Below, piece after piece: positions 39,087-58,255 of a stretch of 64,000 bases of DNA. The stretch comes from Actinomycetota bacterium (GTDB lineage Bacteria > Actinomycetota > CALGFH01 > JBBAAN01), in contig JBBAAN010000002.1 in NCBI GenBank assembly GCA_041658225.1, positions 2,124 through 66,123 of the forward strand, read 5' to 3'. Made by a program: the position numbers and the translations under genes. The notes under the pieces were generated by a model. The model saw only the letters and a list, made by a program, of their open reading frames with translations. It was not told where the DNA came from and did no database searches. Each line of letters opens with the position of its first letter. Position 1 is the first letter of the stretch.

Positions 39087-39308
39087 CGAACACCACCCCC
39101 ATCTCTCAGGCCAAGTGTCGACAAGCCGAATCCCCGGGTGAATAGACCACCCGGGGGGTTCTGCTGCCCAGTGAATGGCCCGAATGGGGGTGGTTATCGG
39201 GCTGACGGCCCGGCGAGCAGGCGCTGCTCGCCCCCATCCTCGAACGCAAGAAACACTGCGGCTAACGGAGGGTGGCTGACCGATTCCTCGAGCGAGCCGA
39301 GTCGACGG

Positions 39309-41329: not shown

Positions 41330-41369
41330 GAGCTCGAGAACGGTGAAACCGCCCTCGGCCTCGCGGAGT

Positions 41370-42599: not shown

Positions 42600-42652
42600 G
42601 CCGCAACCACCCCTAGTCGTCCCTAATCCCCCCAGACGTGCCCAGAGTATCG

Positions 42653-43708
42653 TCAAGAAGACCCTATCAGTTTAGGCCCCACCGGCCGGGCCGCACGGGT
42701 CCCCAGCAGCAGCCAGCGAAGTAGACGGAGGGCGGGTGCCCGGCGACGCACCAACCGGCGCTTGCGCCAAAGGCGAGGGAACAGCTTCATAGCGTCCGGG
42801 ATTGCCCTGAGCGTGGCGCGCTCGCGCAACGCGCAATAGGCAACGAGGGCCAACTCGCGAGCCAGGATGGCCGGGAGACTCGGCAGGAATGTCGCGAGGG
42901 TCTCGTTCTTGACGCCCACCAGGTAGCGGTTCCTGACGCCGATGCGCCGCACCCACTCTTGCGAGTGCTCCCTCGACTCCGGTCGGAACCTGCGGTTGTG
43001 GCGGCCGACCGCACCGGCGACGTACATTGCCCGCCACCCCGCGGACTTGGCCCGCCACGCCAGATCCACGTCTTCCCGGTAGCAGAACAGGTCCTCGTCC
43101 AAGACCTCGCCCGAACAAGCCACGTCCTCGAGCATCCTCCGTCGGTACAACCCGGCGGCGGCCGAGACCCCGAAAACCCACTCGTCGCGCGCGTACTGCC
43201 CGCGGTCCTCCTGCCCCGCGCCCCGGTCCAGCGCACGCCGATCGGCTCGCACGAAGAGTCCCGTGGAGTCAAAGATCGGCGTGGCCTCCAAAGCGCCCGC
43301 CCGAAGCAGCTTTCCCGTCAGCGAGCCCACCCGCCGCGCGGCGAGGCCCGCCCGCAGCAGTCTCTCCACGTAGTCCGGCTCGAGAACCACGTCGGGATTG
43401 ACCAGGAGAACCCACGGCGCCGTGCCCAGTGCCAGGCCCTGGTTCACCGCCGCCGCGAACCCCAGGTTGCCGGCATTGCGCAGCAGAGTTGCCTGCGGCC
43501 AGAGTCGCGAGATTATCTCCGCCGAGCCATCAACCGATCCGTTGTCGACACAAACAAGCGACACGGGAACGGTCTGAGCTCGAAGGCAGGCAAGGCACTC
43601 CGCAAGACTGGCCGCGCTGTTGAAGCTCACCACCAACGCATCCACGCTCGGCCATCCGCCAGTTCGGCTCTCACCTCCCGCCTGCCCGACCGACGGTGCT
43701 CGCATCAT
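42653..43708 (-). CDS. Family 2 glycosyltransferase.
   Basis: GT2 signature VVSFNSAASLAECLACL...VDNGSVDGS...LVNPD (DxD-type) in first 120 aa. Confidence 0.8.
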   Translation of the reverse strand: MMRAPSVGQAGGESRTGGWPSVDALVVSFNSAASLAECLACLRAQTVPVSLVCVDNGSVDGSAEIISRLWPQATLLRNAGNLGFAAAVNQGLALGTAPWVLLVNPDVVLEPDYVERLLRAGLAARRVGSLTGKLLRAGALEATPIFDSTGLFVRADRRALDRGAGQEDRGQYARDEWVFGVSAAAGLYRRRMLEDVACSGEVLDEDLFCYREDVDLAWRAKSAGWRAMYVAGAVGRHNRRFRPESREHSQEWVRRIGVRNRYLVGVKNETLATFLPSLPAILARELALVAYCALRERATLRAIPDAMKLFPRLWRKRRLVRRRAPALRLLRWLLLGTRAARPVGPKLIGSS

Positions 43709-46449
43709 TCCTCCGACGCCGCATAGGCCCGATCGGCAGCCCGAGAGGCCCCGGATGATTGCCCGTACCTGCCACCCTCCTGAGCCCCCGCCCCCTCTGA
43801 TATCCCCCAGCTATACAGCAACGCGTCCGCCTTTCTCAAGCGCCCGGCCGCCCACAAAGCCAGAGGGAAGAAGACCCCGAACAACCCGCCTCCGACCAGC
43901 GCCGCCAGTCCCGCTCCGATGCGGCCGGCCGGCGCCACAACGCCCGCCGCAAATCCCGCGGCCGCCCCTGCCAGCCCCCCCGCAAGCCCAGACGCCCAGA
44001 TCCTGGACATCTCAATACCCCTCGGGTACCCGAACGCCCGTCGGAACAACCCCAGGAACAGCGCTGCCCCAGCCACCAAGGCGACCGTCGGTCCCCAAGC
44101 CGCGCCGGCAATCCCGAACCGGCCAACCAGGAACACCGACAGTGGGACATTCACCGCGGCGATCAGCACCCCCACACGCGCCAGGAGACCGGGCTGGTTG
44201 AGACCCTGCGAAAACACCGCGAAAGTCCCGGTGGCTGCGTTGAGCGCAGCCCCCAAAGCCAGAATGCGAACGAGCGAGGCGGCCTGCGCCCCGTGCGCAC
44301 CAAGGGCCCCGCCCACCCATGCTCTGATTGCCTCGGGTGCCAGGATCGCGAGCAGGGCGAACGCCCCAGCGGCGACCCCAACCAAGAGCCGGGTCGCCCG
44401 GTCGAATAGACGACGCAGCGCCTCTTCCTCCCCCCTGCCGCGAAGGTCTGCCGCCGCGGGCATGACCCCCGCGATCAACAGCAACGTCAGATCCCTTAGC
44501 GCCTTCACGACTCGGGCTGCCACCTCATACCCAGCCAGAACGCCCAACCCCAGGAAGCGCGCGACGATGATGCGGTCGGCATAGGTCATCGCGAGCTCCG
44601 CCAGCACGCTCAGTTGCAGCTTGCCCCCGAAGCCGACCAGAGCCCCCAACTCCCCCGAAGACACTGAGCGCGCGCGGATCCTGACATCGGGGAACACACG
44701 CCGCAGCGCCAACCCGTTCAGACACGGGTTGATCAGGGCCCCCAGTACCGCGATAGCCGCAAGGGCGTAGAGGCCACCGCCGAGATGCAAAGCCATCAGG
44801 GTAGCCACAGTCTGAGGCACCATCAGCCGGATGCTGATCCGAGAGGTAACGTCCAGACGCTGCCGACCCACGAGTCCGGCCGCGTATACCCCTCCCACAC
44901 CGTTCAAGAAGAAGCTCGCCACGCCGGAGAGCAGCGCTGCCGCGGCCTCACCCTGCAGGTGGGCCGGCACCCGGAAAACGGACATGAACGCGGCGCGCCC
45001 CGCCCAACAAGCGGGGACAACCAACAGCAACAGCAGCACATAGATCGCCAGGCCCGTACTCAGGGTCCGGCTCATGGCGTGCCGATCCCCACGCGCATGG
45101 CCATCTGCCACCCTCTTCGCGAACGCGTTGGAAGCCCCGAGATCCAGCAACCCCAGATGCTGGGCCAGGATCCCCGTGAGCGACCAGACCGCGAACCGTG
45201 AAGTTCCCAGCCGGGAAAGGGCGTAGGGAACCACGATCAGCGCGGCGACCATTCCCGCCACTCGGGCTAGAGCATTCTCAAGAGTGTTGCGCGGGAGCCG
45301 CGCCAGCGAATCCAGCGAGCCGGGCCTGGCCGTCGCGTGGCACATTTCTTCGAACTGCGCCGTTGCCGCCTGCCAACCGTAGTGCTCCGAGACCCGCCCG
45401 GCGGCCAGGTTACCCAGCCGCTCTCGCCGCTGCGGATCCGCGAGCAATCCAGAGAGGGTGCCGGCCAATCCTGAAGCCCCATCCGCCAGCCGGAAAATGA
45501 CCGCCGTCCCTCCAACGACCTCCAAGTTCGGGACGTGATCACTGGCCAGCACGGCCCGGTGAGCGGCCATCGCCTCCAAGAGCACTGGATGGGTTCCCCC
45601 GACTTCGGTGGGGACCACAAACACCGCGGCGTGGCTGGCCAGTTCCCGGAATCCCTTGCCGAACAGATAGCCCGCGAAGACCACCTCCGGGCCGGCGAGC
45701 TCACGCAAACGAGACTGGTACTCCCGGGCATAGGGGGCGTCACCAACTATGACCAGCCGCATCCCGGCGTCCCGCTCCACCTGCCGCCAGGCCTCGAGTA
45801 GCAGGTGCGCGTTGTTCTCCGGTACCAGCCGCCCTACGAATAGCACGTACTTGCCGGCTTCCAGGCCCAATCTGGCGAGCGTCTCCGTGCCCGGTTCAGC
45901 GATCGGGTCCACCCCGTAGCGCACGACCGCGGGACGCTTGCCGAAGCGGCGGCTCATCTCCTCGGCCACCGCGACGGAATCGGTGACGCACAGGTTGGGG
46001 GCAAACACCGAGATTCGCTCCGCGAAGCGCAGATACCGCCGCGCTAGCCGCCCCCACTTCTCCCGCCTGGAATCCGCCCCATCCACATTGAGGATCGTCC
46101 GCAATCCCAGAAGCCTCGCCAACAGGACGATCGGCGCATTGCCGGCGGTGGCGTACACGGCCACATCGGGCCGGGGCCTCAGGCGGAAAGCTGCATGCAG
46201 GGTGGAGAGCAGGGTGTGCAGGAATGTCTCGAGATGCTTGCTGTGCAATACCGGCAACCGGACCAGACGGACTCCTCGGTACTGTGAAGGCCCTTTCCCT
46301 CCCCGACAGTAGACCGTGACCTCGTGGCCCTCCGCCGCCAGGCGGGTCGCGAACCCCTCGACGGCCGTCTCGACGCCCGAGTAGGAGGCAGGGATACCGC
46401 GGCTTCCCAGGAACGCGACCCGCAGCCGCAGGTCGGTTTGCCCATCCAT
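43705..46449 (-). CDS. Fusion protein: an N-terminal GT4-family glycosyltransferase joined to a C-terminal Wzx-like (MOP superfamily) polytopic flippase domain.
   Basis: N-terminal half has GT4 features (VAFLGSRGIPASYSGVETAVEGFA, C-terminal EX7E-like region VFVVPTEVGGTHPVLLEAMA). C-terminal half has about 12 hydrophobic helices with Wzx-like N-region LSRLGTSRFAVWSLTGILAQHLGLLDLG. Confidence 0.7.
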   Translation of the reverse strand: MDGQTDLRLRVAFLGSRGIPASYSGVETAVEGFATRLAAEGHEVTVYCRGGKGPSQYRGVRLVRLPVLHSKHLETFLHTLLSTLHAAFRLRPRPDVAVYATAGNAPIVLLARLLGLRTILNVDGADSRREKWGRLARRYLRFAERISVFAPNLCVTDSVAVAEEMSRRFGKRPAVVRYGVDPIAEPGTETLARLGLEAGKYVLFVGRLVPENNAHLLLEAWRQVERDAGMRLVIVGDAPYAREYQSRLRELAGPEVVFAGYLFGKGFRELASHAAVFVVPTEVGGTHPVLLEAMAAHRAVLASDHVPNLEVVGGTAVIFRLADGASGLAGTLSGLLADPQRRERLGNLAAGRVSEHYGWQAATAQFEEMCHATARPGSLDSLARLPRNTLENALARVAGMVAALIVVPYALSRLGTSRFAVWSLTGILAQHLGLLDLGASNAFAKRVADGHARGDRHAMSRTLSTGLAIYVLLLLLVVPACWAGRAAFMSVFRVPAHLQGEAAAALLSGVASFFLNGVGGVYAAGLVGRQRLDVTSRISIRLMVPQTVATLMALHLGGGLYALAAIAVLGALINPCLNGLALRRVFPDVRIRARSVSSGELGALVGFGGKLQLSVLAELAMTYADRIIVARFLGLGVLAGYEVAARVVKALRDLTLLLIAGVMPAAADLRGRGEEEALRRLFDRATRLLVGVAAGAFALLAILAPEAIRAWVGGALGAHGAQAASLVRILALGAALNAATGTFAVFSQGLNQPGLLARVGVLIAAVNVPLSVFLVGRFGIAGAAWGPTVALVAGAALFLGLFRRAFGYPRGIEMSRIWASGLAGGLAGAAAGFAAGVVAPAGRIGAGLAALVGGGLFGVFFPLALWAAGRLRKADALLYSWGISEGAGAQEGGRYGQSSGASRAADRAYAASEE

Positions 46450-46451
46450 CG

Positions 46452-47924
46452 CTACACCGCGCCGCGCCGGCTGAGAACGGCGGGAAGTGTGCGGGCCAAG
46501 ATCGCGAGATCGAGCAGCGGTGACCAGTTCTCGACGTAGAGCACGTCCAGGCGCATCGACTCTCCGAAGGACAGGTCGCTGCGCCCGCTCACTTGCCATA
46601 GCCCGGTCATCCCGGGCACCGCTCGCAGACGACGCAGCTCCAACTCGTCATAGTGAGCCACTTCGGACAGTGGCATGGGCCGAGGGCCTACCAGGCTCAT
46701 GTCTCCCTTCAGAACATTGAGCAGTTGGGGTAGTTCATCGAGGCTGGACCGCCGCAGAAACTCGCCGACCCTGGTGACCCGAGGGTCCGAAGCCACTTTG
46801 AACCTCGGCCCATCCGCCCCGTTCAGCTCCGCAAGACCCGCCTCCATCTCCTCGGCGCCGAGCACCATCGTCCGGAATTTCCAAACGCGGAAGCCTTTCC
46901 CGAACCGGCCGACTCGCCAGTGGCGAAAGAGCACCGGGCGGCCCCCATCGGCGAGCACGGCCACCGCAATCGCCAGGAACACCGGCGCTAGCACCACTAA
47001 CCCTACAGTGGCCAGAATCAGGTCGAGTGCCCGCTTCGCGAGAGCCTTGGGCCCCGACAACCGCACCTCCCCCACGTCCAGCAAGGGCATGTCGCCGATC
47101 GACGCCACGACGAGCCTCGAGGTCAGGACATCGGCCAGGGCGGGCGCAACCAACACGCGAACACCGGTGCCCTCCAGCGTTCGAAGCACGCCCGCCACGG
47201 TCTCGCTGGAAGCCGCGCCGGAGGACACGACAACGGCGTCGGGCCGCAACCGCTCCGCCTTTACAGCCAGATCCCCCACCGGCCCCAGCACTGCTCCCTG
47301 CCCCCAGATCACGCACCCGACGGGGGTTTGGTCGTCCATGAACCCGACAACCTGGTACCCCCCGGCCTCCCGCCGCTCCAGGCGTTCCGCAAGGACCCGA
47401 GCACCCGAGTCCGCTCCGACGATCAGGACCCGGCCGGACACAATCCCTTCGACCCTCAACCGGGCCAGCCAGCGCCCGACCACCACGCGCCATCCAGTCA
47501 GCAGGAGAAAGGTCGCGATCCCGCCCAACACGGGCCAGGTTCGTGCCGGCTGCATCTTGAGGAAGAACGCCAATCCGGTGGTACCCACCATCGCGACCAG
47601 CACCGCGTGGAACACATCTCGCACTGCCAGCAAGCGAAGGAGCAGGCGCCTGGGCTCGTAGAGCCGGTAGGCGGCCAGCGCGAGCAGGCTCAATCCCACC
47701 CCCGCCCCCAGCAGCACAACGTAGTTGGCGTCCTCCGGCCGGTAGCCGACCAAGTTGGGCAGCGGCAGCAGCCCGGTGCGGAATCTGAGCAAGTAGGCGA
47801 AGCCCAGGCCGGTCAGAACGCACAGAGCATCTCCCGCGAGCACGAAGATCCAGACGCAGCGCATCAGCCCGCGTTCAGGTATCGGCTCTCCGCCGCGACG
47901 AAGCCTTCGCAGCAATGCGGTCAC
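46452..47924 (-). CDS. Undecaprenyl-phosphate sugar phosphotransferase, the WbaP/CpsE-like initiating enzyme of glycan assembly.
   Basis: N-terminal TM bundle and C-terminal bacterial sugar transferase domain with DELPQLLNVLKGDMSLVGPRP motif. Confidence 0.85.
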   Translation of the reverse strand: MTALLRRLRRGGEPIPERGLMRCVWIFVLAGDALCVLTGLGFAYLLRFRTGLLPLPNLVGYRPEDANYVVLLGAGVGLSLLALAAYRLYEPRRLLLRLLAVRDVFHAVLVAMVGTTGLAFFLKMQPARTWPVLGGIATFLLLTGWRVVVGRWLARLRVEGIVSGRVLIVGADSGARVLAERLERREAGGYQVVGFMDDQTPVGCVIWGQGAVLGPVGDLAVKAERLRPDAVVVSSGAASSETVAGVLRTLEGTGVRVLVAPALADVLTSRLVVASIGDMPLLDVGEVRLSGPKALAKRALDLILATVGLVVLAPVFLAIAVAVLADGGRPVLFRHWRVGRFGKGFRVWKFRTMVLGAEEMEAGLAELNGADGPRFKVASDPRVTRVGEFLRRSSLDELPQLLNVLKGDMSLVGPRPMPLSEVAHYDELELRRLRAVPGMTGLWQVSGRSDLSFGESMRLDVLYVENWSPLLDLAILARTLPAVLSRRGAV

Positions 47925-48116: not shown

Positions 48117-49979
48117 GTGTCGATTCCGCTGAGAATCCGCCGCATCCGCCTTCTCATCGAGGCCAGCAGCCGGGTCTGGACCGACGAGGGACCCGGCAGC
48201 TTCGCCGCGAAAACGGCCAGGCGCATGGCGCGCTCCCTCCTGGCGGGTGAGCCCCTGGCCAGGCCCCCCGAGCTTGTCGTGGCCGCTTCCGAGTACCGGA
48301 ACTGGCTGGAGACGGCAGTCCGCGCCAGAAACTCGAGGCAGGCTGGGAACCCGCCGCAGCAGCCTGCATACCAACCGCTGGTAAGCGTCCTCACCCCTGT
48401 CTACGACGTGGACGAAGCATGGCTGCGAAGAGCCATCGAGTCCGTCATCATGCAGAGCTACCCGAACTGGGAACTCTGCTTGGTCGACGACGCCTCCAGG
48501 AAACCCCACGTGCGCCGCGTGCTCTCCGAGTACGCCGCTGCCAACGAGCGGATCAAGGTCCGATTCCTGAGATCCAACTCGGGCATCTCTGAAGCCTCCA
48601 ACCGAGCCCTCGAGCTTGCCGAAGGGGAGTTCGTGGCCTTGCTCGACCACGACGACGAGCTCACTCCCGACGCGCTGCTCGAAGTGACGCGGCGTCTGGA
48701 GCGGGATCCCAGCCTTGATCTTGTTTACACGGACGAGGACAAGTACGCGAGGGGCGGTGCTCTCCCCGTCGAGCCATTCTTCAAGCCGGACTGGTCTCCC
48801 GACCTACTCCGGTCGATGAACTACATCACTCACCTGAGCGTCTTCCGCCGGAGCCTGGTCGAGGACATGGGCGGCTTCAGGGCTGGACTGGAGGGGAGCC
48901 AGGACTACGATCTACTCTTGCGCTTCACCGAACGGACGAACCGCATAGCGCATGTGCCCAAGGTCTGCTACCACTGGCGCAAGATAGCCGGATCGGCAGC
49001 CGTGTCCTCCGACAGCAAGCCCTACGCCTACCGGGCAGCGGAGCGGGCGCTCAGCGACGCACTTCGCCGCCAGGGCCGCGAGGGCAAGACCCGCATGATC
49101 GCCCCCGGCCGCTACCGGGTGCAGTATGCCATCGCGGGGACTCCTCCGGTGTCCTTCGTGGTCGCGGCCCGTGGCGGCAACCGTGCAATGGCCAAGTCTC
49201 TCGCAGCAATGGCCTCCAAGACCGCATATCGCAACATCGAGCTGATCGTTGTGGGGGCCCCGGACTGGCAAGAAATCGCGAGGAGGCTTCCCGAGTCGGG
49301 CCTGGCCATTCGACACGCTCCCGGACGTCCGGGGGCGGGATGGGCGACCACCTGCAACTTGGCGGCGTCGAGCGCACGCGGCCAGTACCTGCTCTTCCTG
49401 GATGGCCTCACGCGACCTCTGAACCCCCAGTGGTTGGAGGCCCTACTCGAGCATGCCCAGCGTGAGGAGGTCGGCGCTGTGGGTTCCACTCTCGTGCGCC
49501 GTAATGGCTACATCTCTCAGGCTGGCGTCGTGCTGTGTGCCGGTGGCGCCGCCCGCTACGCCTATCGCGATCTCGACGCCGGCTCACCCGGCTATGTCGG
49601 TCTCGCGCACGCCGTGCGCGACTGCAGTGCCGTGACGGGAGCGAGCATGATGATCCGGGCCGACCTCTTTCTGGACGTCGGAGGATTCGACGAGCACCTT
49701 GTGCCGCCATGGGCGGAGGTCGACCTGTGTTTGCGCCTCAGACACCACGGCTACCAAGTCGTCTGCACACCCTTCTCGCGGCTCCTGCAGCATCGGGGTG
49801 CCACTCGGCGAGCCCTACCATCCAATCGCTCCGCCGCGCTTGTCGTCAAACGGTGGGGCGAAGTAATCGCCGACGGCGATCCTTACTTCAGTCCCAATCT
49901 GGTGCCCGAGTTCGATATCGTTCGCCTTCGGGTTCCATCGAGCGACATGGCCGGACGAAAGGGGAGCGACTTTGCCTGA
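48117..49979 (+). CDS. Dual-domain glycosyltransferase with two tandem GT2 modules; divergent from the minus-strand glycan genes.
   Basis: Two regions with GT2 signatures, VSVLTPVYDV...LVDDAS...LDHDD and VSFVVAARGGN...LFLDGL. Confidence 0.75.
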   Translation: MSIPLRIRRIRLLIEASSRVWTDEGPGSFAAKTARRMARSLLAGEPLARPPELVVAASEYRNWLETAVRARNSRQAGNPPQQPAYQPLVSVLTPVYDVDEAWLRRAIESVIMQSYPNWELCLVDDASRKPHVRRVLSEYAAANERIKVRFLRSNSGISEASNRALELAEGEFVALLDHDDELTPDALLEVTRRLERDPSLDLVYTDEDKYARGGALPVEPFFKPDWSPDLLRSMNYITHLSVFRRSLVEDMGGFRAGLEGSQDYDLLLRFTERTNRIAHVPKVCYHWRKIAGSAAVSSDSKPYAYRAAERALSDALRRQGREGKTRMIAPGRYRVQYAIAGTPPVSFVVAARGGNRAMAKSLAAMASKTAYRNIELIVVGAPDWQEIARRLPESGLAIRHAPGRPGAGWATTCNLAASSARGQYLLFLDGLTRPLNPQWLEALLEHAQREEVGAVGSTLVRRNGYISQAGVVLCAGGAARYAYRDLDAGSPGYVGLAHAVRDCSAVTGASMMIRADLFLDVGGFDEHLVPPWAEVDLCLRLRHHGYQVVCTPFSRLLQHRGATRRALPSNRSAALVVKRWGEVIADGDPYFSPNLVPEFDIVRLRVPSSDMAGRKGSDFA

Positions 49980-50712
49980 GGTCTATGATGCCTTCTACTA
50001 CGCTACGTCCTGCGGCCGCCCCTACCGGCGAGACGAGGAGTGGCTAGCGTTCTTCGGCCGTATGGCGGATCGAATCATTCAGGACTTGAACCCCCGCACC
50101 GTGATGGATGCCGGCTGTGCTCACGGTTTCCTGGTCGAGGCCCTGCGGGACCGGGGGGTGGAGGCTTACGGCGTCGATGCGTCCGCTTACGCGATAGGGC
50201 AGGTCCGGCCGGACGTATCCCAGTACTGCACGATCGGTTCGCTTCTGGGACCTTTCCCGCAGACCTACGACTTGATCGTGTGCATCGAGGTAGTCGAGCA
50301 CCTTGCCGCAGCTCAGGCACACGACGCGATCGGCAATCTGTGCCGGCATGCCGACGACATTCTCTTCTCCTCCACCCCGGACGACTACACCGAGCCCACC
50401 CATCTCAACGTTCGTCCCGTCGAGCACTGGGCGGAGCACTTCGCACGCAACGGGTTCTTTCGGGACCTCGACTTCGACACGGAGTTCATAGCTCCGCAAG
50501 CAATGCGCTTCCGGAGATCGTCCGACCCGGCCCATCGCATGGTTGCGAACTACGAGAGGAAGCTTTGGTCGCAGACCAGGGAGACCGCCGCGCTACGCAG
50601 GCAGGTCATCGAGATGAAGAACCAGCTGTCTGCCGCCTGGCACCCTCAGCCCGACATGCCGTTGGGATGGATGCGCCGTGTGCGAACGCGCCACAAGGGT
50701 GGGACCACCTAG
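49972..50712 (+). CDS. Class I SAM-dependent methyltransferase; TTG start at 49972 or a downstream start.
   Basis: Rossmann-like motif VMDAGCAHGFLVEALRDRGVEAYGVDAS...LIVCIEVVEHL. Confidence 0.6.
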   Translation: MPEVYDAFYYATSCGRPYRRDEEWLAFFGRMADRIIQDLNPRTVMDAGCAHGFLVEALRDRGVEAYGVDASAYAIGQVRPDVSQYCTIGSLLGPFPQTYDLIVCIEVVEHLAAAQAHDAIGNLCRHADDILFSSTPDDYTEPTHLNVRPVEHWAEHFARNGFFRDLDFDTEFIAPQAMRFRRSSDPAHRMVANYERKLWSQTRETAALRRQVIEMKNQLSAAWHPQPDMPLGWMRRVRTRHKGGTT

Positions 50713-50853: not shown

Positions 50854-51369
50854 CTAGGATCGAGACCAGGAGTCGCCCCAAGCCGGGTCGGACGGATCCG
50901 GCACGGCGCACGAAGCGCCCGCGGGCACGGTGCGGTCATAGTAGGTGCCAGTCAAGCTGCCCGCCATGGTGTCCTTAATGTAGAAGCAGCGCCCCATCGA
51001 GGTTCTGCCCACCAGCACCACAGTCTGAGCCGTGCTTGGGATGTTGAACACCTTCAGGTAGATGGCCCGCGCTGATGAGCTGCCATCCAGAGCAGTTGTC
51101 GTCCAGGCCAGAGACGGCTCCACCTTCGACATCTCCGCCGAGTCCTCAGTGTATGCGGACCACTCGCCGTAGTAGATCCGACTCGCCGTGAACGCATTGC
51201 GCACGTTGGCTTGGGTAGCACGGTCGGCTGCCTGCCGGCGAGCCCCCAGGTAGGTCGGGATGGCGATCGCGATAAGGATGGCGATGATGAGTACGACCAC
51301 CATCAGTTCGATGAGGGTGAAGCCCTCGTGCCGCTTGGTGTGAGAGCCGAGGTTTCGCATGAACCCCAT
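50854..51369 (-). CDS. pilA: Type IVa major pilin, copy 1.
   Basis: Class III signal peptide ...TKRHEG|FTLIELMVVVLIIAILIAIAIPTYLGARRQ. Confidence 0.8.
   Translation of the reverse strand: MGFMRNLGSHTKRHEGFTLIELMVVVLIIAILIAIAIPTYLGARRQAADRATQANVRNAFTASRIYYGEWSAYTEDSAEMSKVEPSLAWTTTALDGSSSARAIYLKVFNIPSTAQTVVLVGRTSMGRCFYIKDTMAGSLTGTYYDRTVPAGASCAVPDPSDPAWGDSWSRS
51242..51321. repeat. 80-bp segment (1 mismatch) shared by pilA copy 1 and pilA copy 2 (52062-52141), covering the conserved alpha-1 N-terminal helix.
   Basis: Sequence ggtcgggatggcgatcgcgataaggatggcgatgatgagtacgaccaccatcagttcgatgagggtgaa is identical at both loci. Flanking 3' coding parts are unrelated at nucleotide level. Confidence 0.85.
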
Positions 51370-51664: not shown

Positions 51665-51696
51665 CAAGAAAACGGCGGGCCCTTACGGGCCCGCCG
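51665..51696 (-). terminator. Intrinsic terminator downstream of pilA copy 2.
   Basis: Minus-strand RNA CGGCGGGCCC-GUAA-GGGCCCGCCG (10-bp GC stem) followed by UUUUCUU; 20 nt after pilA2 stop. Confidence 0.7.
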
Positions 51697-51714
51697 TTCA
51701 GAGCGAAACCGGTA

Positions 51715-52182
51715 CTACCACTTGTCGGCGCCAGTGCCGGCACAGCTGGGAACCTTGAAGTACAGGGTACCCGCGCCAGTGCCGATAGACGTGTCCTTGA
51801 TCGAGAAGTTCGTGCCCGACATGCTGTGCGCGGTGAGACACACAACAGCGCTGTCGCCGAGGACCACGTCCGACACCTCCATCAAAACCTCACGCCGAGC
51901 GTCTGGAGTCCCGCTGTTCAGCCACGTCAGGGAAGGCTCAATGCCCTGCATCGACGCGGTGTCCTCCGTGAACACCTCGTTGTCCGTGTAGTACACCTTC
52001 TCCGCCGTCAGGCCGTTGCGGAGATCGGACTGAGCTGCACGGTCCTGCGCGCGCTTTCGGGCCCCCAGGAAGGTCGGGATGGCGATCGCGATAAGGATGG
52101 CGATGATGAGTACGACCACCATCAGTTCGATGAGGGTGAATCCCTCTTCCTTCTTGGTCATGCTTTCACGAAGTTTGATCAT
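51715..52182 (-). CDS. pilA: Type IVa major pilin, copy 2, with a strong RBS.
   Basis: Leader ...MTKKEEG|FTLIELMVVVLIIAILIAIAIPTFLGARKR; AAGGAGG 12 nt upstream of ATG; intrinsic terminator 20 nt after stop. Confidence 0.8.
   Translation of the reverse strand: MIKLRESMTKKEEGFTLIELMVVVLIIAILIAIAIPTFLGARKRAQDRAAQSDLRNGLTAEKVYYTDNEVFTEDTASMQGIEPSLTWLNSGTPDARREVLMEVSDVVLGDSAVVCLTAHSMSGTNFSIKDTSIGTGAGTLYFKVPSCAGTGADKW
52062..52141. repeat. Second copy of the 80-bp pilA N-terminal identical segment.
   Basis: See 51242-51321. Confidence 0.85.
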
Positions 52183-52387: not shown

Positions 52388-53629
52388 CTAGGCATCTCGG
52401 GCCGTTTCCCACGCCGGGTCTGTCGGTCTGGCGCTCGCCCACAGTGCCCCCGCCGGCGATCCCAGCAGCACCGCCAGCAGCGCGGGCAGTGCCGGGTAGT
52501 GCCAGTCGAAGTCGAAGCCGGCGTGCGCGAGCAGCACTCCGGCGCCCACCACAAGCCCCGACTCCATTCCCGGGAACCCCTTCCGTACCAGGCGCCACGC
52601 AACGAGCGCGCCGGCAGCCAGCACTCCCACAGCAGCCAAAGCCAGAGGGGTCCCCCCTTCGGCCGCGGCCTGCAGATACTCGTTGTGGGCATACCGGCTC
52701 TTGATCGGCCCGTGCTGGTAGGGCGCGGCTGCCTTGCCGTAGAGGCCCAGTCCGACTCCCAAGACGGGGTGATCGGCGAACACCTCTCCTGCCGCGCGCC
52801 ACCAGTCCAACCGGCCGAAAGCACTGGAGCCGGCGTCGTTGCCGCGCACCGCCAGACCCTGCGGACGGTCGGAGGGCGTCGACTTCTTGGCCAGTGCGAG
52901 CGCCCCCAGTCCGAGCAGGCCCACCAGCGCGACGACCAGCAGTTTGCGCGCCCACCCGCGCCCGATGGCCACCGCGGCAGCCACTCCGCCAACCACCGCC
53001 AGAGCCAGGCTGGCCCTCGACCCGGACAGGTAGGTCGCCGCGAGTAGTGCGCCCGCGGTCACACCGGCAAGCACCCGGCCGCGACCCGGCTGGGAAACCG
53101 CCCATGCTGTCCAGAGCACCACGCCCACCGCAACGAAGATCCCAAACTGGTTGCGCCAGTAGAAGTGACCGGTCATGAACCCGCCTCCGCCGCCACCTCC
53201 CCCACCCCACCAGGTGTACCAGGCCCAAGCGGCCTCCCAGACGATCGCGAGGCCCGCGACCGCGGCTAACAGCCGCGCCCTGCCTCGCCCAGCCTCCACG
53301 AGCGCGGCGACCCCCAGACCGGGAAGCGCCGCGAACACCCTCCACGAAAGCAGGGCCTCCTCTCCCCTTCCCGGGATGAGCGCAAGGCTGGCAGCCAGCG
53401 CTGCCGCCCCCCAGAGCAGCACCGCGAACCGGCCTGCCCGCGAGCGCCACGCTGGGATCAGCGACACGAGGCCAGCCAGAGCAGCCAGGATTGCCGCACA
53501 GGTCAGTGTCCAGCCGCCGCGCCCACCCCAATCGGAAGGCAGCACGAAGAGCGCGTAGGCGAAAGCCACCCACCGAAGACCCGTAGCCACGGGCTGGGCC
53601 GCCGAGAGCCCGGAAGCGCTTGGGGTCAC
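52388..53629 (-). CDS. Wzy_C / O-antigen ligase family polytopic membrane protein. Candidate pilin O-oligosaccharyltransferase (TfpO/PglL-like).
   Basis: About 12 TM helices; periplasmic-loop motif RYAHNEYLQAAAEGG matches the HNxYLxxxxExG signature of the O-antigen ligase family. The gene is translationally coupled (ATGA) to pilC and precedes pilA. Confidence 0.65.
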   Translation of the reverse strand: MTPSASGLSAAQPVATGLRWVAFAYALFVLPSDWGGRGGWTLTCAAILAALAGLVSLIPAWRSRAGRFAVLLWGAAALAASLALIPGRGEEALLSWRVFAALPGLGVAALVEAGRGRARLLAAVAGLAIVWEAAWAWYTWWGGGGGGGGGFMTGHFYWRNQFGIFVAVGVVLWTAWAVSQPGRGRVLAGVTAGALLAATYLSGSRASLALAVVGGVAAAVAIGRGWARKLLVVALVGLLGLGALALAKKSTPSDRPQGLAVRGNDAGSSAFGRLDWWRAAGEVFADHPVLGVGLGLYGKAAAPYQHGPIKSRYAHNEYLQAAAEGGTPLALAAVGVLAAGALVAWRLVRKGFPGMESGLVVGAGVLLAHAGFDFDWHYPALPALLAVLLGSPAGALWASARPTDPAWETARDA

Positions 53630-54843
53630 TGAATCAGCTTGATGATGTTGAACATCGGCAGGTACAGGGAAACGACCATCCCTCCCACCGCGCCGCCCAT
53701 GACCGCGATGAGCAACGGCTCGATCAACGACGTGAGGCTATCAACGGCCGCCGAGACCTCAGCGTCGTAGAAGTCGGCGATCTTGGACAGCATCGTGTCC
53801 AGGGCCCCCGTCTCCTCTCCCACCGCCATCATCTGCACGACCATCGGCGGGAACACCGGGTGCGCCTCGAGCGGCTTGGACAGACTCTCGCCGTGGCGCA
53901 CCGCCTCCTGGACGTCCTTGACCGCCTTGGCCACCACACCGTTGCCCACCGTATCGGCCACGATGTCCAGGCCCTGCAGGATCGGGACGCCGGACTTCAG
54001 CAGCGTGGAGAGGGTGCGCGAGAACCGCGACAGCGCGGTCTTCTGGAACAGCGAGCCGAAGACCGGCATCTTGAGCTTCATGACGTCCAGGGCGTACCGG
54101 CCTTTGGGTGTAGCCTTCCACCGGCGAAGCGCGAAACCGGTCCCGATGGCACCGCCGAGGACCAGCCACCAGAACTTCTTGAAGATGTCGCTCATCCCGA
54201 CGAGCACCCGCGTGGGCAGCGGCAACGTGCCGCCCAGGGTCGAGTAGAGGCTCTGGAACATCGGCACGACGAAGAGCAGCATCGCCGACAGGATCATGAT
54301 CACCATGCCGAACACGGCGACCGGGTAGGTCATCGCCGACTTGATCTTGCCCCGAAGTTCCACTTCCTTCTCGATGGTGTCGGCCAGACGCACCAAGACC
54401 TGGTCGAGGAAACCGCCGATTTCCCCCGCCTTGACCATCGCCACGTAGAGGTTGCTGAAGGCCTTGGGGTGCTTGCGCATCGCCTCCGAGAGGCTGGTTC
54501 CCTTCTCCACGTCGGTGCGCACCAGGCGCACGATCTCCGCCAGTTTGGGGTTCTCGGTCTGGTCCCCCAGGATCGAAAGGGCCCTCAGCAACGACAGGCC
54601 CGAGTTGATCATCGTGGCGAACTGACGCGAGAAGACCGCCACGTCCTTGAGCTTAATCCGGTTGCGGCCCGGAAGGTGCAGTTCCCTCTTGGCCGCGCCG
54701 GCCTTGACCGCCTCGATCGTCAGCGGCGCATATCCCAGCTCGCGAAGACGCAGGGCAACCGCGGACTGGGAGTCCGCCTCTACCGTGCCCGAGACCAGCT
54801 TGCCCTGCCGGTCACGCACCTTGTAGGCGAATGTCTCCGCCAT
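53626..54843 (-). CDS. pilC: Type IV pilus platform protein PilC (GspF family).
   Basis: Duplicated GspF domains; 405 aa; synteny pilB-pilT-pilC. Confidence 0.9.
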   Translation of the reverse strand: MAETFAYKVRDRQGKLVSGTVEADSQSAVALRLRELGYAPLTIEAVKAGAAKRELHLPGRNRIKLKDVAVFSRQFATMINSGLSLLRALSILGDQTENPKLAEIVRLVRTDVEKGTSLSEAMRKHPKAFSNLYVAMVKAGEIGGFLDQVLVRLADTIEKEVELRGKIKSAMTYPVAVFGMVIMILSAMLLFVVPMFQSLYSTLGGTLPLPTRVLVGMSDIFKKFWWLVLGGAIGTGFALRRWKATPKGRYALDVMKLKMPVFGSLFQKTALSRFSRTLSTLLKSGVPILQGLDIVADTVGNGVVAKAVKDVQEAVRHGESLSKPLEAHPVFPPMVVQMMAVGEETGALDTMLSKIADFYDAEVSAAVDSLTSLIEPLLIAVMGGAVGGMVVSLYLPMFNIIKLIQ

Positions 54844-54846
54844 GAC

Positions 54847-56481
54847 CTAGCCTCCCCTTCGCCCTGGGGCGGTCGCCCCACCGAGGAGCCGGCTCAGATC
54901 CTCCATGTGGTGACAGCGCTCGAAAGCTATCTCTCGGGTGACCTTGCCCGCGCGAACCAGCGTCGCCAGGTGCTGGTCCATGGTCTGCATCCCGTACTGG
55001 GCCCCCGCCTGGATGGAGGAGTAGATCTGGTGGGTCTTGCCCTCGCGGATCAGGTTGCGCACTGCCGGGGTGGCCACCAGCACCTCGACCGCCACCACGC
55101 GTGAGAGGACGTCGGTGGCCGGCAGCAACTGCTGGGAAACGATGCCCTGCAGCGAGGCCGCCAACTGCACCCGCACCTGCTGCTGTTGATGCGGCGGGAA
55201 GACGTCGATGACTCGGTCGATAGACTGCGGGGCGTCCTGGGTGTGCAGGGTCGCGAACACCAGGTGGCCGGTCTCGGCGGCGGTCAGGGCCACGGAGATC
55301 GTCTCCAGGTCGCGCATTTCCCCGACCAGGATCACGTCGGGGTCCTGGCGCAGCACGTGCTTCAGGGCGTTGGCAAAGGTCTTGGTATCGGCCCCGAGTT
55401 CCCGCTGGTTCACCATCGCCCTGTCGTGCGCGTGCATGAACTCGATGGGGTCCTCGATCGTCATGATGTGCACCGCACGCTCGTGGTTGACCACGTCGAT
55501 CACCGAGGCAAGCGTGGTGGACTTGCCCGAGCCGGTCGGCCCGGTGACGAGCACGAAGCCGCGCTGCATGTGCGCGAAGCTTCGAAGGATCGGCGGCAAC
55601 CCGAGCGCCTCGGGAGACTTGATCTCCATGGGGATCGCCCGGAACGCCGCCCCGATGGAATCGCGCTGGAAGTAGACGTTGACTCGGAAGCGCGACACGC
55701 CCGGCAGGCTGTAGGCGCAGTCAAGCTCCAACTCGTTCTCAAGGACCTCTCGCTGCTTCTGGGAGAGGATCGAGTAGACCACCTTGCGCAGCTCTCCCGG
55801 GTCCAGCGGTGGATGGGGATCCAGCCGGATGAGGTCTCCGTGCACTCGCACCACCGGGGGCGATCCGGCGGTGAAGTGCAGGTCCGACGCGCCCATCTCG
55901 ACCATCTCCTCGAGCAACTCGGCAAGATAGGTCGCCCGTGCGGTCTCATGGTCACTGCGCTTCATCCAGGCCGAGCGAGTCTGGCCGGGAACGGCCTCGG
56001 GCCGAGCCGGGGGACTCGGGGGAGAGGCCATCTCCACCGCGGCGGCGGACTCCACGGGGCCAAACGGCACGTCGATACGCGCGGGCATCACTATCTCCTC
56101 CACTACCTCCGGCGCCGCATCGGATACCACGAACACCTCGGACACTCCTGAGTCCGGCTCGTCCAGCGAGATCATGCTCACGGGATCCGGTTCACCGGAC
56201 ACCTCACCGGGCTCCGCGTCCTCAGCCTGCGCTTGCACCCCAACCTCGACTTCGGGCAACAGCACGCTCTCCTCCCCTTCCGCGACCTCAGCCGCCGGCT
56301 CCTCGCCCGCTTCGGGCTCAGCCGGAGCCTGCGGTTCAGGGAGCGCTTCAGGCTCGGCCGGAGCTTCAGGCTCAACCGGAGCCTGCGGTTCGTCGGCAAC
56401 AGGCTCAGGCGGCGCAGCCTCGGGCGCCGGGCCCTCCGGCCGGAACACCTCGCCCACGATCCACGGTTCCCGCTTCTTCAC
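54847..56481 (-). CDS. pilT: Twitching-motility retraction ATPase PilT with an N-terminal acidic Pro/Glu/Ala-rich extension of about 170 aa. Start assigned to GTG at 56481 after a GGAGG site; an alternative internal start is ATG 55965.
   Basis: C-terminal 372 aa are a canonical PilT: Walker A GPTGSGKST, Asp box, AIRNLIRE motif. The upstream in-frame region has no stop and the best SD (GGGAGGtggacGTG) precedes codon V52. Confidence 0.75.
   Translation of the reverse strand: MKKREPWIVGEVFRPEGPAPEAAPPEPVADEPQAPVEPEAPAEPEALPEPQAPAEPEAGEEPAAEVAEGEESVLLPEVEVGVQAQAEDAEPGEVSGEPDPVSMISLDEPDSGVSEVFVVSDAAPEVVEEIVMPARIDVPFGPVESAAAVEMASPPSPPARPEAVPGQTRSAWMKRSDHETARATYLAELLEEMVEMGASDLHFTAGSPPVVRVHGDLIRLDPHPPLDPGELRKVVYSILSQKQREVLENELELDCAYSLPGVSRFRVNVYFQRDSIGAAFRAIPMEIKSPEALGLPPILRSFAHMQRGFVLVTGPTGSGKSTTLASVIDVVNHERAVHIMTIEDPIEFMHAHDRAMVNQRELGADTKTFANALKHVLRQDPDVILVGEMRDLETISVALTAAETGHLVFATLHTQDAPQSIDRVIDVFPPHQQQQVRVQLAASLQGIVSQQLLPATDVLSRVVAVEVLVATPAVRNLIREGKTHQIYSSIQAGAQYGMQTMDQHLATLVRAGKVTREIAFERCHHMEDLSRLLGGATAPGRRGG
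56311..56400. repeat. Degenerate direct repeats (23-bp core ggctca[g/a]ccggagcctgcggttc at 56315 and 56369, partial copy at 56351) within the PilT N-terminal extension coding region.
   Basis: Seen directly; encodes EPQAPAEPEA-type repeats. Confidence 0.6.
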
Positions 56482-56569
56482 GTCCACCTCCCCACGCACC
56501 CGACAATACTCCGCCGAGGACGTCAAAGTGCCTATTCGGACCCCGGCCTCAAGGCCTTGAGCCTTCTCA

Positions 56570-58255
56570 CTAGATGACGACGCGCAAGATCTCCTCCAGG
56601 GAGGTCGACCCCCGGGCCACCTTGCCGAGCCCATCCTCCCTCAGCGTCGTCATTCCCTGCTCACGAGCCATCCTGGCAATCTCATCCGCTGAGCGTCGTT
56701 CCACGGTCAGTCGCTCGATGCCCTCACTCATGCGCATGATCTCGTGCAGACCCATCCGCCCGCGGTAGCCCGTGCGTCCACAGTATGCGCAGCCACCTGC
56801 CCGGTACAGCGTCGGCACCGGCTCGTCCTGCTTCCAGGGAAACCGCGCCTCGATGAGGCTGTCGGGGGTCGGCTCGTACACCTCCTTGCACTTCTCACAC
56901 AGGCGCCGGGCCAGCCGTTGGGCCAGCACACAGTCCAGCGCGGAGGTGACCAGGAACGGCTCGATGCCCATCTCGATGAGGCGCGTAATCGCCGAGGGAG
57001 CGTCGTTGGTGTGCAACGTCGACAGCACCAGGTGCCCGGTCAGGGATGCCTCGATGGCGATCATCGCCGTTTCCTGGTCTCGGATCTCGCCGATCAGCAC
57101 CACGTCCGGGTCCGATCGCAGGATCGAGCGCAGGGCCGAGGCAAACGTCAGGCCCGCCTTCGTGTTGGTCTGCACCTGGTTGATCCCCGGCAGCCGGTAC
57201 TCGATGGGATCCTCCACCGAGATGATGTTGCGGTCCGGGGAGTTGAGGATGTTCAGGGTCGCATACAGCGTGGTCGACTTGCCCGAGCCGGTGGGCCCGG
57301 TGACCAGGATCATTCCGTAGGGCTTCTTGAAGGAAACCTCGTAGCGGGCGAAGGCCTCCATCGAGAAACCGAGATCCTGGAGTTTGAGCAGCACCGAGGA
57401 CTTGTCCAGGATTCGCAGCACGACCTTCTCGCCGAACGCCGTGGGCAGGGTGGCCACGCGGAGGTCGATGCCCTTGCCGCCCACCACCAGGCTGATGCGC
57501 CCGTCTTGCGGGATGCGCCGCTCGGCGATGTTGATATCGGCCATGATCTTCAGCCGAGAGATCATGCCGGCCTGGATGCGCTTGGAGGGGCGCATCACCT
57601 CATGGAGAACGCCGTCGATGCGGTAGCGCACGCGCAGGTCGTGCTCTTGAGGCTCGATGTGGATGTCCGAGGCGCGCTCGGTCACGGCCTGGGAGATCAG
57701 CAGGTTGACCAGCCTGACGATCGGGGCTTCCTCGACGACCTCCCGCAACTTGACGATGCTATCGAGATCCTCGGATTCGTCGGTCGCCTTGGCGGCCGCG
57801 ATGTCCCCCGCCGAGGTGTCCATCCGCTTGAAGCGCTCGATGGCCTCGAGCACGTCCGATCGGGTGGCAACCACGACTTTGAGGTCCATCCCCGTGACCG
57901 TGCGGATGTCGTCCAGCGCAACCACGTTGGTCGGGTCACTCATCGCCACGACCAACCGCCCGTCGTCGGTGGCGATGGGAAGAGCCAGGTAGCGGCGAGC
58001 CAGCGCTTCACTGACGAGGGAGGCGGCGTTGGCGTCGATCTGGAACTCGCCAAGTTCGACGAACGACAGGCCCGTCTGTTTGGCCAGGGCGGCCACCAGG
58101 TCGGACTCGCTGACGTAGTTCAGATCGATCAGGACGCGACCCAGCGACTTGCCCAGCCGCTCCTGCTCCGCAAACGCATGCTCGAGCTTGTCCTCGCTGA
58201 GACAGCCCTCCTCGAGGAGGACGTCCGCCAGGCGCTGAGTCTTCCTGCTCGTCAT
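56570..58255 (-). CDS. pilB: Type IV pilus assembly ATPase PilB (GspE family).
   Basis: N1/N2 domains, Walker A GPTGSGKST, tetracysteine CEKCK...CAYCGRTG motif; 561 aa. Confidence 0.9.
   Translation of the reverse strand: MTSRKTQRLADVLLEEGCLSEDKLEHAFAEQERLGKSLGRVLIDLNYVSESDLVAALAKQTGLSFVELGEFQIDANAASLVSEALARRYLALPIATDDGRLVVAMSDPTNVVALDDIRTVTGMDLKVVVATRSDVLEAIERFKRMDTSAGDIAAAKATDESEDLDSIVKLREVVEEAPIVRLVNLLISQAVTERASDIHIEPQEHDLRVRYRIDGVLHEVMRPSKRIQAGMISRLKIMADINIAERRIPQDGRISLVVGGKGIDLRVATLPTAFGEKVVLRILDKSSVLLKLQDLGFSMEAFARYEVSFKKPYGMILVTGPTGSGKSTTLYATLNILNSPDRNIISVEDPIEYRLPGINQVQTNTKAGLTFASALRSILRSDPDVVLIGEIRDQETAMIAIEASLTGHLVLSTLHTNDAPSAITRLIEMGIEPFLVTSALDCVLAQRLARRLCEKCKEVYEPTPDSLIEARFPWKQDEPVPTLYRAGGCAYCGRTGYRGRMGLHEIMRMSEGIERLTVERRSADEIARMAREQGMTTLREDGLGKVARGSTSLEEILRVVI

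Follow-up and report, generated by a model that had tools for sequence, protein, structure and literature searches.

Why should an O-antigen-ligase-family membrane enzyme be encoded within a type IVa pilus operon of an uncultured actinobacterium, and to what might it transfer glycan? What is known of Wzy_C enzymes that glycosylate pilins comes mainly from Proteobacteria, where the modification affects how pili function and how susceptible cells are to phages; enzymes of this type are used for conjugate vaccines. Glycosylation is not mentioned in two reviews of monoderm and Gram-positive pili that were searched, and according to a 2019 review the actinobacterial pili studied so far are of the Tad type. 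Here, we analysed a 64-kb stretch of actinobacterial DNA (the window), in which a sequence-only reading had proposed a candidate pilin O-oligosaccharyltransferase inside a pilB-pilT-pilC-pilA operon. The operon and its immediate surroundings contain the following features:

56570-58255, minus strand: pilB, assembly ATPase (T2SSE, 476 bits, plus MshEN)
54847-56634, minus strand: pilT-like retraction ATPase with a P/E/A-rich N-terminal extension, true start uncertain (T2SSE, 158 bits)
53626-54843, minus strand: pilC, platform protein, whose stop overlaps the Wzy_C start (T2SSF, 242 bits)
52388-53629, minus strand: Wzy_C/O-antigen-ligase-family membrane enzyme, candidate pilin O-oligosaccharyltransferase (413 aa, 12 TM helices)
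53180-53206, minus strand: run of exactly nine Gly, aa 142-150 of the enzyme, in outer loop 5 between TM5 and TM6
52652-52687, minus strand: HNEYLQAAAEGG motif (aa 315-326), whose His315, the candidate catalytic residue, lies where the large outer loop ends (regular expression and translation)
51715-52182, minus strand: pilA1, pilin of 155 aa of the same type as PilA in relatives, C-terminus ...DKW (N_methyl motif)
51665-51699, minus strand: intrinsic terminator after pilA1 (13-bp GC stem followed by UUUUCUU)
50854-51369, minus strand: pilA2, an extra 171-aa pilin and candidate acceptor (N_methyl)

The gene order pilB-pilT-pilC-Wzy_C-pilA1 agrees with that proposed, pilA1 starting 205 bp downstream of the Wzy_C gene with a Shine-Dalgarno sequence of its own. 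Translational coupling to pilC also held up, except that the overlap is not the ATGA reported earlier: the Wzy_C ORF is read from a GTG start codon, and the two genes share GTGA (CAG TGA / GTG ACC). An identical Wzy_C protein with the same pilC junction is present in a separate assembly (Logan SRR8449812), and base composition gave no clear foreign sign for the Wzy_C gene or for the glycan genes described below (GC 0.63-0.72 throughout). The retraction ATPase is 62-70% identical to the PilT of relatives from about residue 207-237 onward, and PilA1 is 51-56% identical to PilA of L018-L020. The terminator behind pilA1, missed by a consensus terminator scan, was found by folding the region (66-nt segment, MFE -38.4 kcal/mol, z=-4.68). 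A 70-nt identity links pilA2 with the pilA1 5' region, and PilA2 is extended at its C-terminus by seven residues, the last of them Ser (…AWGDSWSRS).

The family assignment was borne out by the Pfam profile: PF04932 (Wzy_C) matches aa 194-332 with E=2e-18 and 67.1 bits, against a curated cutoff of 31.7 bits, and is the sole recognisable domain of the 413-aa protein. An identical entry at NCBI is annotated as 'O-antigen ligase family protein [Actinomycetota bacterium]'. A direct sequence search of the PDB with the window protein returned no match, whereas the family profile reached both PglL and WaaL among solved structures, the best sequence-profile match being the PglL-type chain 9rmk. In the AlphaFold2 model (pLDDT 81, pTM 0.84), the enzyme is a polytopic protein of 12 helices folded like WaaL, a large extracytoplasmic loop preceding the last helices, and the closest solved fold is that of WaaL; identity to WaaL of Cupriavidus metallidurans (PDB 7TPG/7TPJ) is 16-18%. 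Orientation was taken from the positive-inside rule applied to the model helices, with 16 Lys/Arg in the short inside loops and cytoplasmic C-terminal tail against 4 in the short outside loops. On that basis, loop 248-321 (with R273 and H315), R205, the Gly9 loop, and H369/D373 are all predicted to lie outside the cytoplasm, in agreement with the topology of the earlier reading.

The HNxYLxxxxExG motif described earlier was recovered as HNEYLQAAAEGG, and the residues around it follow the pattern of the family. R205 and R273 do not vary across 38 sequences, and H315 hardly does; R273 and H315 align to R298 and H349 of chain 9rmk and to R265 and H313 of WaaL 7tpg. The corresponding conserved Arg, Arg, and His of Escherichia coli WaaL are R215, R288, and H338. 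However, the HN motif and the Arg and His are essential in inverting Wzy polymerases with Wzy_C as well (PMC4815439), so neither the motif nor these residues, which we had considered as grounds for excluding a polymerase, show transfer to protein, and sequence cannot separate a pilin transferase from a polymerase.

Domain architecture bears on the possibility that the enzyme is a general PglL-like O-oligosaccharyltransferase, with a broad range of membrane and exported proteins as substrates, modified in Ser/Ala/Pro regions of low complexity, and with pilins as only one substrate class. The window enzyme shares the Wzy_C core of PglL (Neisseria) and PglS (Acinetobacter baylyi), chain 9rmk scores best with the family profile, and residues conserved specifically in PglL have equivalents here: R205, N160, R273, P288, G291, G293, H315, H369, and D373 correspond to PglL R224, N180, R298, P313, G316, G318, H349, H400, and E404. 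Homologues of pglL also often adjoin pilin genes (21 of 31; PMC3643930). A PT-rich low-complexity linker in a minor pilin of the locus would be a suitable substrate, and the lack of a terminal Ser/Thr on the pilins of other linked loci suggests internal sites. Against this, the PglL and PglS classes are defined by PglL_A and Wzy_C_2 flanking Wzy_C (PMC12645811), and neither domain gave a match in the window protein even at E<=10, which sets it apart from the PglL/PglS type. At 413 aa it is also about 150-200 aa shorter than these enzymes (PglL/PglS 520-600 aa, PglL 550-600 aa; PMC9829042), it ends 13 residues after TM12 without a C-terminal outer domain, and it belongs to a different phylum. 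Furthermore, tight and recurrent membership in pilB/pilC operons points to a dedicated role, genetic linkage to substrates being uncommon for general oligosaccharyltransferases (PMC12645811). We consider a general enzyme very improbable.

Downstream of the two pilins, the window contains a full set of genes, not noticed in the earlier reading, for a lipid-linked glycan pathway (phosphoglycosyltransferase, GT4-Wzx flippase fusion, GT2, double GT2, and methyltransferase), followed by minor pilins:

49972-50712, plus strand: SAM-dependent methyltransferase, glycan modification (Methyltransf_23/11/12/25)
48117-49979, plus strand: double-GT2 glycosyltransferase (Glycos_transf_2 in two stretches, 122.8 bits)
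46452-47924, minus strand: initiating polyprenyl-phosphate phosphoglycosyltransferase (Bac_transf, 213 bits; TIGR03025, 392 bits, above its cutoff)
43705-46599, minus strand: fusion of a rhamnosyltransferase-like GT4 of the DUF1972 type with a flippase of the Wzx/MOP family (Glyco_trans_1_4, DUF1972, Polysacc_synt, MatE)
42653-43708, minus strand: GT2 glycosyltransferase, with a 4-nt overlap with the preceding gene and the minor pilins after it (Glycos_transf_2, 70 bits)
38526-42656, minus strand: minor-pilin set, comprising a PilV-like protein with a PT-rich linker, a GspJ-like, a PilX/GspK-like, and a further N_methyl pilin (weak N-terminal NCBIfam and Pfam matches, prepilin motif)

The fusion protein, with Cps2T-like and WZX_like matches, likely starts at about 46449. 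From the phosphoglycosyltransferase through the minor pilins, which lie directly downstream of the minus-strand glycan genes on the same strand, the genes are tightly spaced or overlapping. The flippase, initiating transferase, and glycosyltransferases fall within 9 kb, and two pilins lie between them and the Wzy_C gene. By predicted function, the locus holds every other part that a pilin oligosaccharyltransferase system needs, namely a phosphoglycosyltransferase, glycosyltransferases, a methyltransferase, Wzx, and two pilins. No LPS genes were found within the 64-kb window, and a Pfam scan of its ORFs detected neither a Wzz/Wzc co-polymerase nor an LCP ligase or exporter.

The same inventory can be read differently. 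Phosphoglycosyltransferase, Wzx, Wzy_C, and glycosyltransferases make up a canonical Wzx/Wzy gene set, and the enzyme might be an inverting polymerase of a surface or slime polysaccharide made together with type IV pili for motility or adhesion, the pilin itself staying unmodified. Like Wzy-beta of Pseudomonas aeruginosa, it combines Wzy_C with the Arg/His residues essential in such beta-linkage polymerases (PMC4815439). In cyanobacteria, hps clusters combine a Wzx/Wzy pathway with minor pilins (PMC12288463), much as the glycan genes here run into minor pilins, and, according to a Myxococcus study (PMC7484181), mutants lacking a Wzx/Wzy EPS component are reduced in pilus-dependent motility. 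A homologue in another locus (L014) lies beside a chain-length-regulator/tyrosine-kinase gene; we have downgraded this neighbour as strong support for a polymerase, since that gene is convergent and the contig starts at the Wzy_C gene. In contrast to Wzx/Wzy systems, the window has no co-polymerase or export protein, although these could lie elsewhere in the genome, and its Wzy_C gene is operonic with pilB/pilC and coupled to pilC, two pilins away from the glycan genes. In L021 and L025, moreover, a related Wzy_C gene occupies the pilB operon without any Wzx, phosphoglycosyltransferase, or glycosyltransferase nearby, a setting not typical of polymerases. Among the pilus-linked relatives, the long ones also show weak, sub-threshold TPR-like matches in their C-terminal part, which we take to suggest a protein partner. 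Taken together, we regard a polymerase as less likely than a pilin transferase, but as the strongest of the rival readings.

The pairing of Wzy_C with pilus genes extends well beyond this locus, contrary to the expectation that it would be unusual in an actinobacterial type IV pilus locus: it recurs in many actinobacterial loci in sequence data, yet we came across no paper that describes it. Genes of a related Wzy_C family stand immediately upstream of pilB-pilT-pilC-pilA in seven loci (L010, L016, L021, L022, L023, L024, and L025), in L025 with a 4-nt overlap with pilB, and in one further sequence (P0002) a homologue directly follows a pilin. L022 carries the same glycan gene set as the window, arranged as PGT-Wzx-MTase-GT4-GT2-GT2-GT4 in front of Wzy_C; its phosphoglycosyltransferase is 64% identical to the C-terminal part of that of the window and its GT2 35% identical, and the GT4 adjoining Wzy_C in L022 and L023 is 39% identical to the GT4 part of the fusion. 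L012, in which unrelated genes occupy the 7 kb separating Wzy_C from pilT-pilC, was left out of the linked count. Pilus-linked proteins were among the top full-length matches of an exhaustive search; genome and metagenome scans with narrower alignments gave only 5 and 3 loci, and an alignment of six sequences diverged too far to serve in such a scan of genomes. The nearest relatives of the window enzyme are only 35-41% identical, and some of them (P0005, P0006, L013) lie outside pilus loci. In relatives whose PilC is 68-70% identical, pilC is followed directly by pilA, with neither Wzy_C nor glycan genes, so that the enzyme, the extra pilin, and the glycan genes appear together as a derived state.

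This recurrence also weighs on a further possibility, that the enzyme ligates glycan to a non-protein envelope acceptor (a glycolipid or wall polymer) and that its place in the pilus locus reflects co-regulation or chance insertion. The structural likeness to WaaL, which ligates glycan to a glycolipid, and the position of the window protein as a long-branch orphan would be compatible with such a role. However, WaaL uses lipid A-core as its acceptor, a molecule that Actinomycetota are not known to make, and actinobacterial wall-polymer ligases belong to the LCP family rather than to Wzy_C. The context, unlike that of WaaL, consists of pilus genes and not LPS genes, and linkage to pili in at least nine loci and three gene arrangements is far beyond chance. 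Such a ligase appears very improbable.

Separately, in a quick neighbour-joining tree, too weak to be relied on, the window protein formed a long branch that joined the pilus-linked group close to its base.

The closest known parallels are the pilin-specific O-oligosaccharyltransferases TfpO (PilO) of Pseudomonas aeruginosa 1244 and Acinetobacter and TfpM of Moraxellaceae, with which the window enzyme was compared by description only. These enzymes are 420-470 aa long, have no recognisable domain other than Wzy_C, and modify the pilin at a Ser/Thr of its C-terminus, and known pilin oligosaccharyltransferases are encoded next to their pilins (PMC9829042; PMC12645811). The window enzyme is likewise compact (413 aa), has only Wzy_C, and adjoins two pilins, and its candidate H315 lies in a large outer loop, as does the essential His of TfpO/TfpM. 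Differences are found in gene arrangement and host: tfpO lies downstream of pilA (pilA-tfpO), whereas the window gene is upstream of pilA and coupled to pilC, and the actinobacterial host has no O-antigen to borrow, with a dedicated glycan pathway in the pilus locus instead. With regard to the acceptor rule, PilA2 ends in ...WSRS and PilA1 in ...DKW. A terminal Ser/Thr was also considered as a mark of all linked loci and rejected, since the pilins of L022 and L023 end in P, Y, or C; a TfpO-style rule is thus not general.

Considering these observations, the earlier proposal of a candidate pilin O-oligosaccharyltransferase is the best-supported reading: somewhat more likely than not, the enzyme belongs to a new class of such transferases, with a compact WaaL fold and dedicated to the pilus. 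At the inner membrane face, the locus phosphoglycosyltransferase would use polyprenyl phosphate to initiate a short glycan, to be extended by GT4, GT2, and the double GT2 and modified by the methyltransferase, and the Wzx domain fused to GT4 would flip it to the outer face. There, R205 and R273 may bind the polyprenyl-diphosphate donor, and H315, with H369 and D373 nearby, may drive en bloc transfer to a Ser/Thr of the membrane-anchored pilin before PilB and PilC assemble it into the fibre. The first candidate acceptor would be the lineage-specific PilA2 with its added tail ending in Ser, and the second the PilV-like minor pilin, in its PT-rich linker. The analysis shows the family, fold, topology, conserved residues, gene content, operon structure, and recurrent pilus linkage; donor, acceptor, and transfer to protein are inferred.

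More tentatively, and with slightly less than even confidence, we propose that this undescribed actinobacterial Wzy_C lineage, located in type IVa pilus operons by pilB or pilC, represents a fifth class of pilin O-oligosaccharyltransferases, belonging to a single-membrane envelope and accompanied here by a complete pilus-dedicated set of glycan genes for a private glycan. If so, the operon-embedded enzyme and its own pathway would make actinobacterial type IVa pili glycoproteins, and a compact, very divergent enzyme class would be added to the glyco-engineering toolbox; the enzyme, acceptor pilins, and donor pathway form a testable gene set of about 12 kb. If the polymerase reading were true instead, the locus would correspond, in a monoderm, to the slime system linked to pili in cyanobacteria, and this too would be new.

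The run of nine consecutive glycines, noted earlier as lying in a loop, was found exactly so. It is encoded by mixed codons (GGT GGG GGA GGT GGC GGC GGA GGC GGG) and is thus not a homopolymer tract, and its loop has low pLDDT at residues 146-148 of the model. Relatives carry WWGGG(S/T) or WWGGGG at the same place, and the run is therefore an expansion of a variable loop.

The presence of a Wzy_C gene in the pilus operon was confirmed, with one small correction. On the minus strand the genes run pilB, pilT-like, pilC, Wzy_C and pilA1, as the sequence-only reading had placed them, and the four-base coupling to pilC is real, although the shared bases are GTGA (pilC stop and Wzy_C start, CAG TGA / GTG ACC) and not ATGA as had been given.

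Features of the pilus locus in the window
54847-56634, minus strand: pilT-like ORF with a ~230-aa Pro/Glu/Ala-rich N-terminal extension
52388-53629, minus strand: Wzy_C ORF, 413 aa, GTG start
51715-52182, minus strand: pilA1
51665-51699, minus strand: terminator directly after pilA1, 13-bp GC stem and U-run
50854-51369, minus strand: pilA2
43705-46599, minus strand: DUF1972-type GT4 fused to a Wzx/MOP flippase, one 964-aa ORF
41370-42656, minus strand: PilV-like minor pilin with a Pro/Thr/Ser-rich linker, PTLTPTATASPSPTPSGSPT
Glycan island, minus strand: polyprenyl-phosphate phosphoglycosyltransferase (TIGR03025, 392 bits, above cutoff)
Glycan island, minus strand: GT2 glycosyltransferase
Glycan island, opposite (plus) strand: two-GT2-domain protein and SAM methyltransferase

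The Wzy_C stop lies 205 bp from the start of pilA1, which has its own ribosome-binding site. An independent assembly from another sequencing run (SRR8449812) contains the identical protein and the same pilC junction, and the identical protein is named 'O-antigen ligase family protein [Actinomycetota bacterium]' at NCBI. The family proposed earlier agrees with Pfam (PF04932, E=2e-18; score 67.1 bits, curated cutoff 31.7), and both the motif (HNEYLQAAAEGG, aa 315-326) and the nine-glycine run (exactly aa 142-150) were found in the protein. The pilT-like ORF and the end of pilB have 65 nt in common; PilT proteins of relatives have 379-648 aa.

A confident AlphaFold2 model based on 38 homologues (pLDDT 81, pTM 0.84) has twelve membrane helices, and the family profile matches two solved structures, 9rmk (51 bits) and WaaL 7tpg (44.8 bits). 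Chain A of 9rmk is a 610-aa 'Oligosaccharyltransferase' with His at 349 and 400, the positions of the conserved PglL H349 and H400. It was not among the hits from either fold library, so the comparison with a protein O-OTase is made at the sequence level. Across the 38 sequences R205, R273, G291, G293, G326 and D373 are invariant and N160, P288, H315, H369 and P379 nearly so. In HMMER alignments, the PglL equivalents are R224 (R205), R298 (R273), G316 (G291), G318 (G293), E404 (D373), N180 (N160), P313 (P288), H349 (H315) and H400 (H369); mutation of PglL E404 much reduces activity (PMC12800693). R205, R273 and H315 also correspond to WaaL R215, R288 and H338 (PMC3643930). Lys/Arg residues number 16 in the short inside loops plus the C-terminal tail and 4 in the short outside loops, so that by the positive-inside rule both termini are cytoplasmic, and the large loop 248-321, R205, H369/D373 and the nine-glycine loop are predicted to lie outside the cytoplasm, in keeping with the earlier expectation for the motif. 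The glycine run falls in a low-confidence loop of the model and is an expansion of a variable loop, since relatives have WWGGG(S/T) or WWGGGG at this position; its codons are mixed, with no slippage-prone tract.

The pilus cluster lies between ~31.3 kb, at the ORF that follows pilO, and 58.3 kb, at pilB, and the shikimate operon genes aroE and aroC flank the whole type IVa cluster (29833-59394). The same insertion site is used by other actinobacterial contigs (L018, L020, L023 and L025). A complete lipid-linked glycan pathway sits inside the cluster, between the major and minor pilins. On a single strand, the genes for the phosphoglycosyltransferase, GT4-Wzx and GT2 and those for the PilV-like, GspJ-like and PilX-like minor pilins succeed one another, overlapping or very closely spaced. 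The PilV-like linker PTLTPTATASPSPTPSGSPT is a possible glycan acceptor; a fibronectin-III-like region, recognized by eye, follows it.

The sequence-only reading had considered such a gene unusual for Actinobacteria, but in sequence data it recurs next to type IV pilus genes, and other Actinomycetota commonly show this linkage. The gene for P0002 (Mycobacteriales MAG), the best homologue from a word search, comes directly after a pilin gene and minor-pilin-like genes, and pilT is close by. In a Sporichthyaceae MAG (L010) and in L016, Wzy_C lies immediately upstream of pilB-pilT-pilC-pilA, an arrangement shared by all five long contigs examined from a search with the L010 protein (L021, L022, L023, L024 and L025); in L025 it overlaps pilB by 4 nt. 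A DUF1972/GT4 gene precedes Wzy_C in L023 and L024, and in L022 it is preceded by phosphoglycosyltransferase, Wzx, methyltransferase, GT4, GT2, GT2 and GT4 genes, the same inventory as the window island (identities of 64% for the phosphoglycosyltransferase, 39% for GT4 and 35% for GT2). Unlike the fused ORF of the window, GT4 and the Wzx-like flippase are separate genes in L022. Robl_LC7 (MglB-like) and PatA_N genes stand ahead of Wzy_C-pilB in L023 (2599-5008), L024 (2140-3521) and L025 (6868-9724), joined by a small GTPase gene in L023 and L025; the window lacks these genes, and aroE there directly borders pilB. The top full-length matches of an exhaustive search include members of this pilus-linked family (P0185, P0161, P0189, P0203, P0186 and P0198), and homologues outside pilus loci also occur (P0005, P0006 and L013). 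In L014, whose contig begins at Wzy_C so that the upstream side lies beyond it, the gene adjoins a convergent tyrosine-kinase/co-polymerase gene.

The analysis shows the enzyme's family, fold, topology and residues, together with the gene content and linkage of its locus. The simplest interpretation is a pilus-dedicated system for en bloc O-glycosylation, which we regard as moderately probable, the function being read from genomic context. Locus-encoded transferases would build a glycan on polyprenyl phosphate, which would be methylated and flipped by the Wzx domain, and the Wzy_C enzyme would then move it to pilin Ser/Thr in the membrane, ahead of PilB/PilC assembly; donor, acceptor and the transfer itself are putative. 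This is favoured because the gene is translationally coupled to pilC (to pilB in other lineages) and adjoins pilins, and because the C-terminal portion of long pilus-linked relatives gives weak TPR-like matches below threshold, which hint at a protein partner. The main alternative, an inverting Wzy-type polymerase of a Wzx/Wzy pathway, is rather unlikely but has arguments of its own. The Wzy_C domain is also present in Wzy polymerases forming beta linkages, and its Arg and His are essential there (PMC4815439), so conserved residues cannot separate a protein transferase from a polymerase; phosphoglycosyltransferase, Wzx, Wzy_C protein and glycosyltransferases form an ordinary Wzx/Wzy set, and filamentous cyanobacteria conserve a Wzx/Wzy pathway and minor pilins cluster for hormogonium polysaccharide (PMC12288463). 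However, no chain-length regulator (co-polymerase), tyrosine kinase, LCP ligase or polysaccharide exporter was found among the 64-kb window ORFs scanned against Pfam, the gene is grouped with pilus motor genes instead of glycan genes, and in L021 and L025 the related gene occurs in pilus operons with no glycan genes nearby, which again favours pilus O-glycosylation. A ligase to a non-protein acceptor is very improbable.

A general PglL-like transferase is very improbable in spite of the PglL-equivalent residues: the extra domains that define PglL/PglS, PglL_A and Wzy_C_2, are absent from the protein even at E<=10, and it is therefore not of that type. Compared by description, its compact size and its single domain, Wzy_C, bring it closest to the TfpO/TfpM type, although gene order differs. 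TfpO and TfpM act on Ser/Thr at the pilin C-terminus (PMC9829042, PMC12645811); PilA2 has a seven-residue extension beyond the conserved final Trp and ends in Ser. The literature searched yielded no account of glycosylated pilin, or of a gene of the O-antigen ligase family, at type IVa pilus loci of actinobacteria, and the reviews of monoderm and Gram-positive pili examined do not mention glycosylation. The protein belongs to the Wzy_C superfamily; the linkage to actinobacterial type IVa pilus genes is recurrent yet apparently undescribed.

PilA1 resembles PilA of relatives, and PilA2 is an extra copy. A 66-nt segment at the pilA1 terminator, which a consensus terminator scan missed, folds at -38.4 kcal/mol (z=-4.68); given this strong hairpin, pilA2 is probably transcribed separately. 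The two genes share 70 identical nt coding for the N-terminal helix (~52071-52140 and 51252-51321, minus strand) at a whole-protein identity of only about 46%, which suggests gene conversion or recent duplication. A HMMER search run exhaustively over 1.84 billion representatives retrieved only the Wzy_C protein itself at E<=1e-30, the best other matches being 35-41% identical, whereas PilC has thousands of relatives, the nearest ~70% identical. On three long contigs with such PilC relatives (L018, L019 and L020), pilA directly follows pilC and the pilus clusters contain no Wzy_C or glycan gene, which makes the enzyme, second pilin and glycan island a derived package in this genome. Elsewhere the window carries genes for pyrimidine and shikimate enzymes and for ABC transporters, including one for a fused full-length ABC exporter, a 1280-aa ORF (21527-25369, minus strand) with two transmembrane and two ATPase modules.
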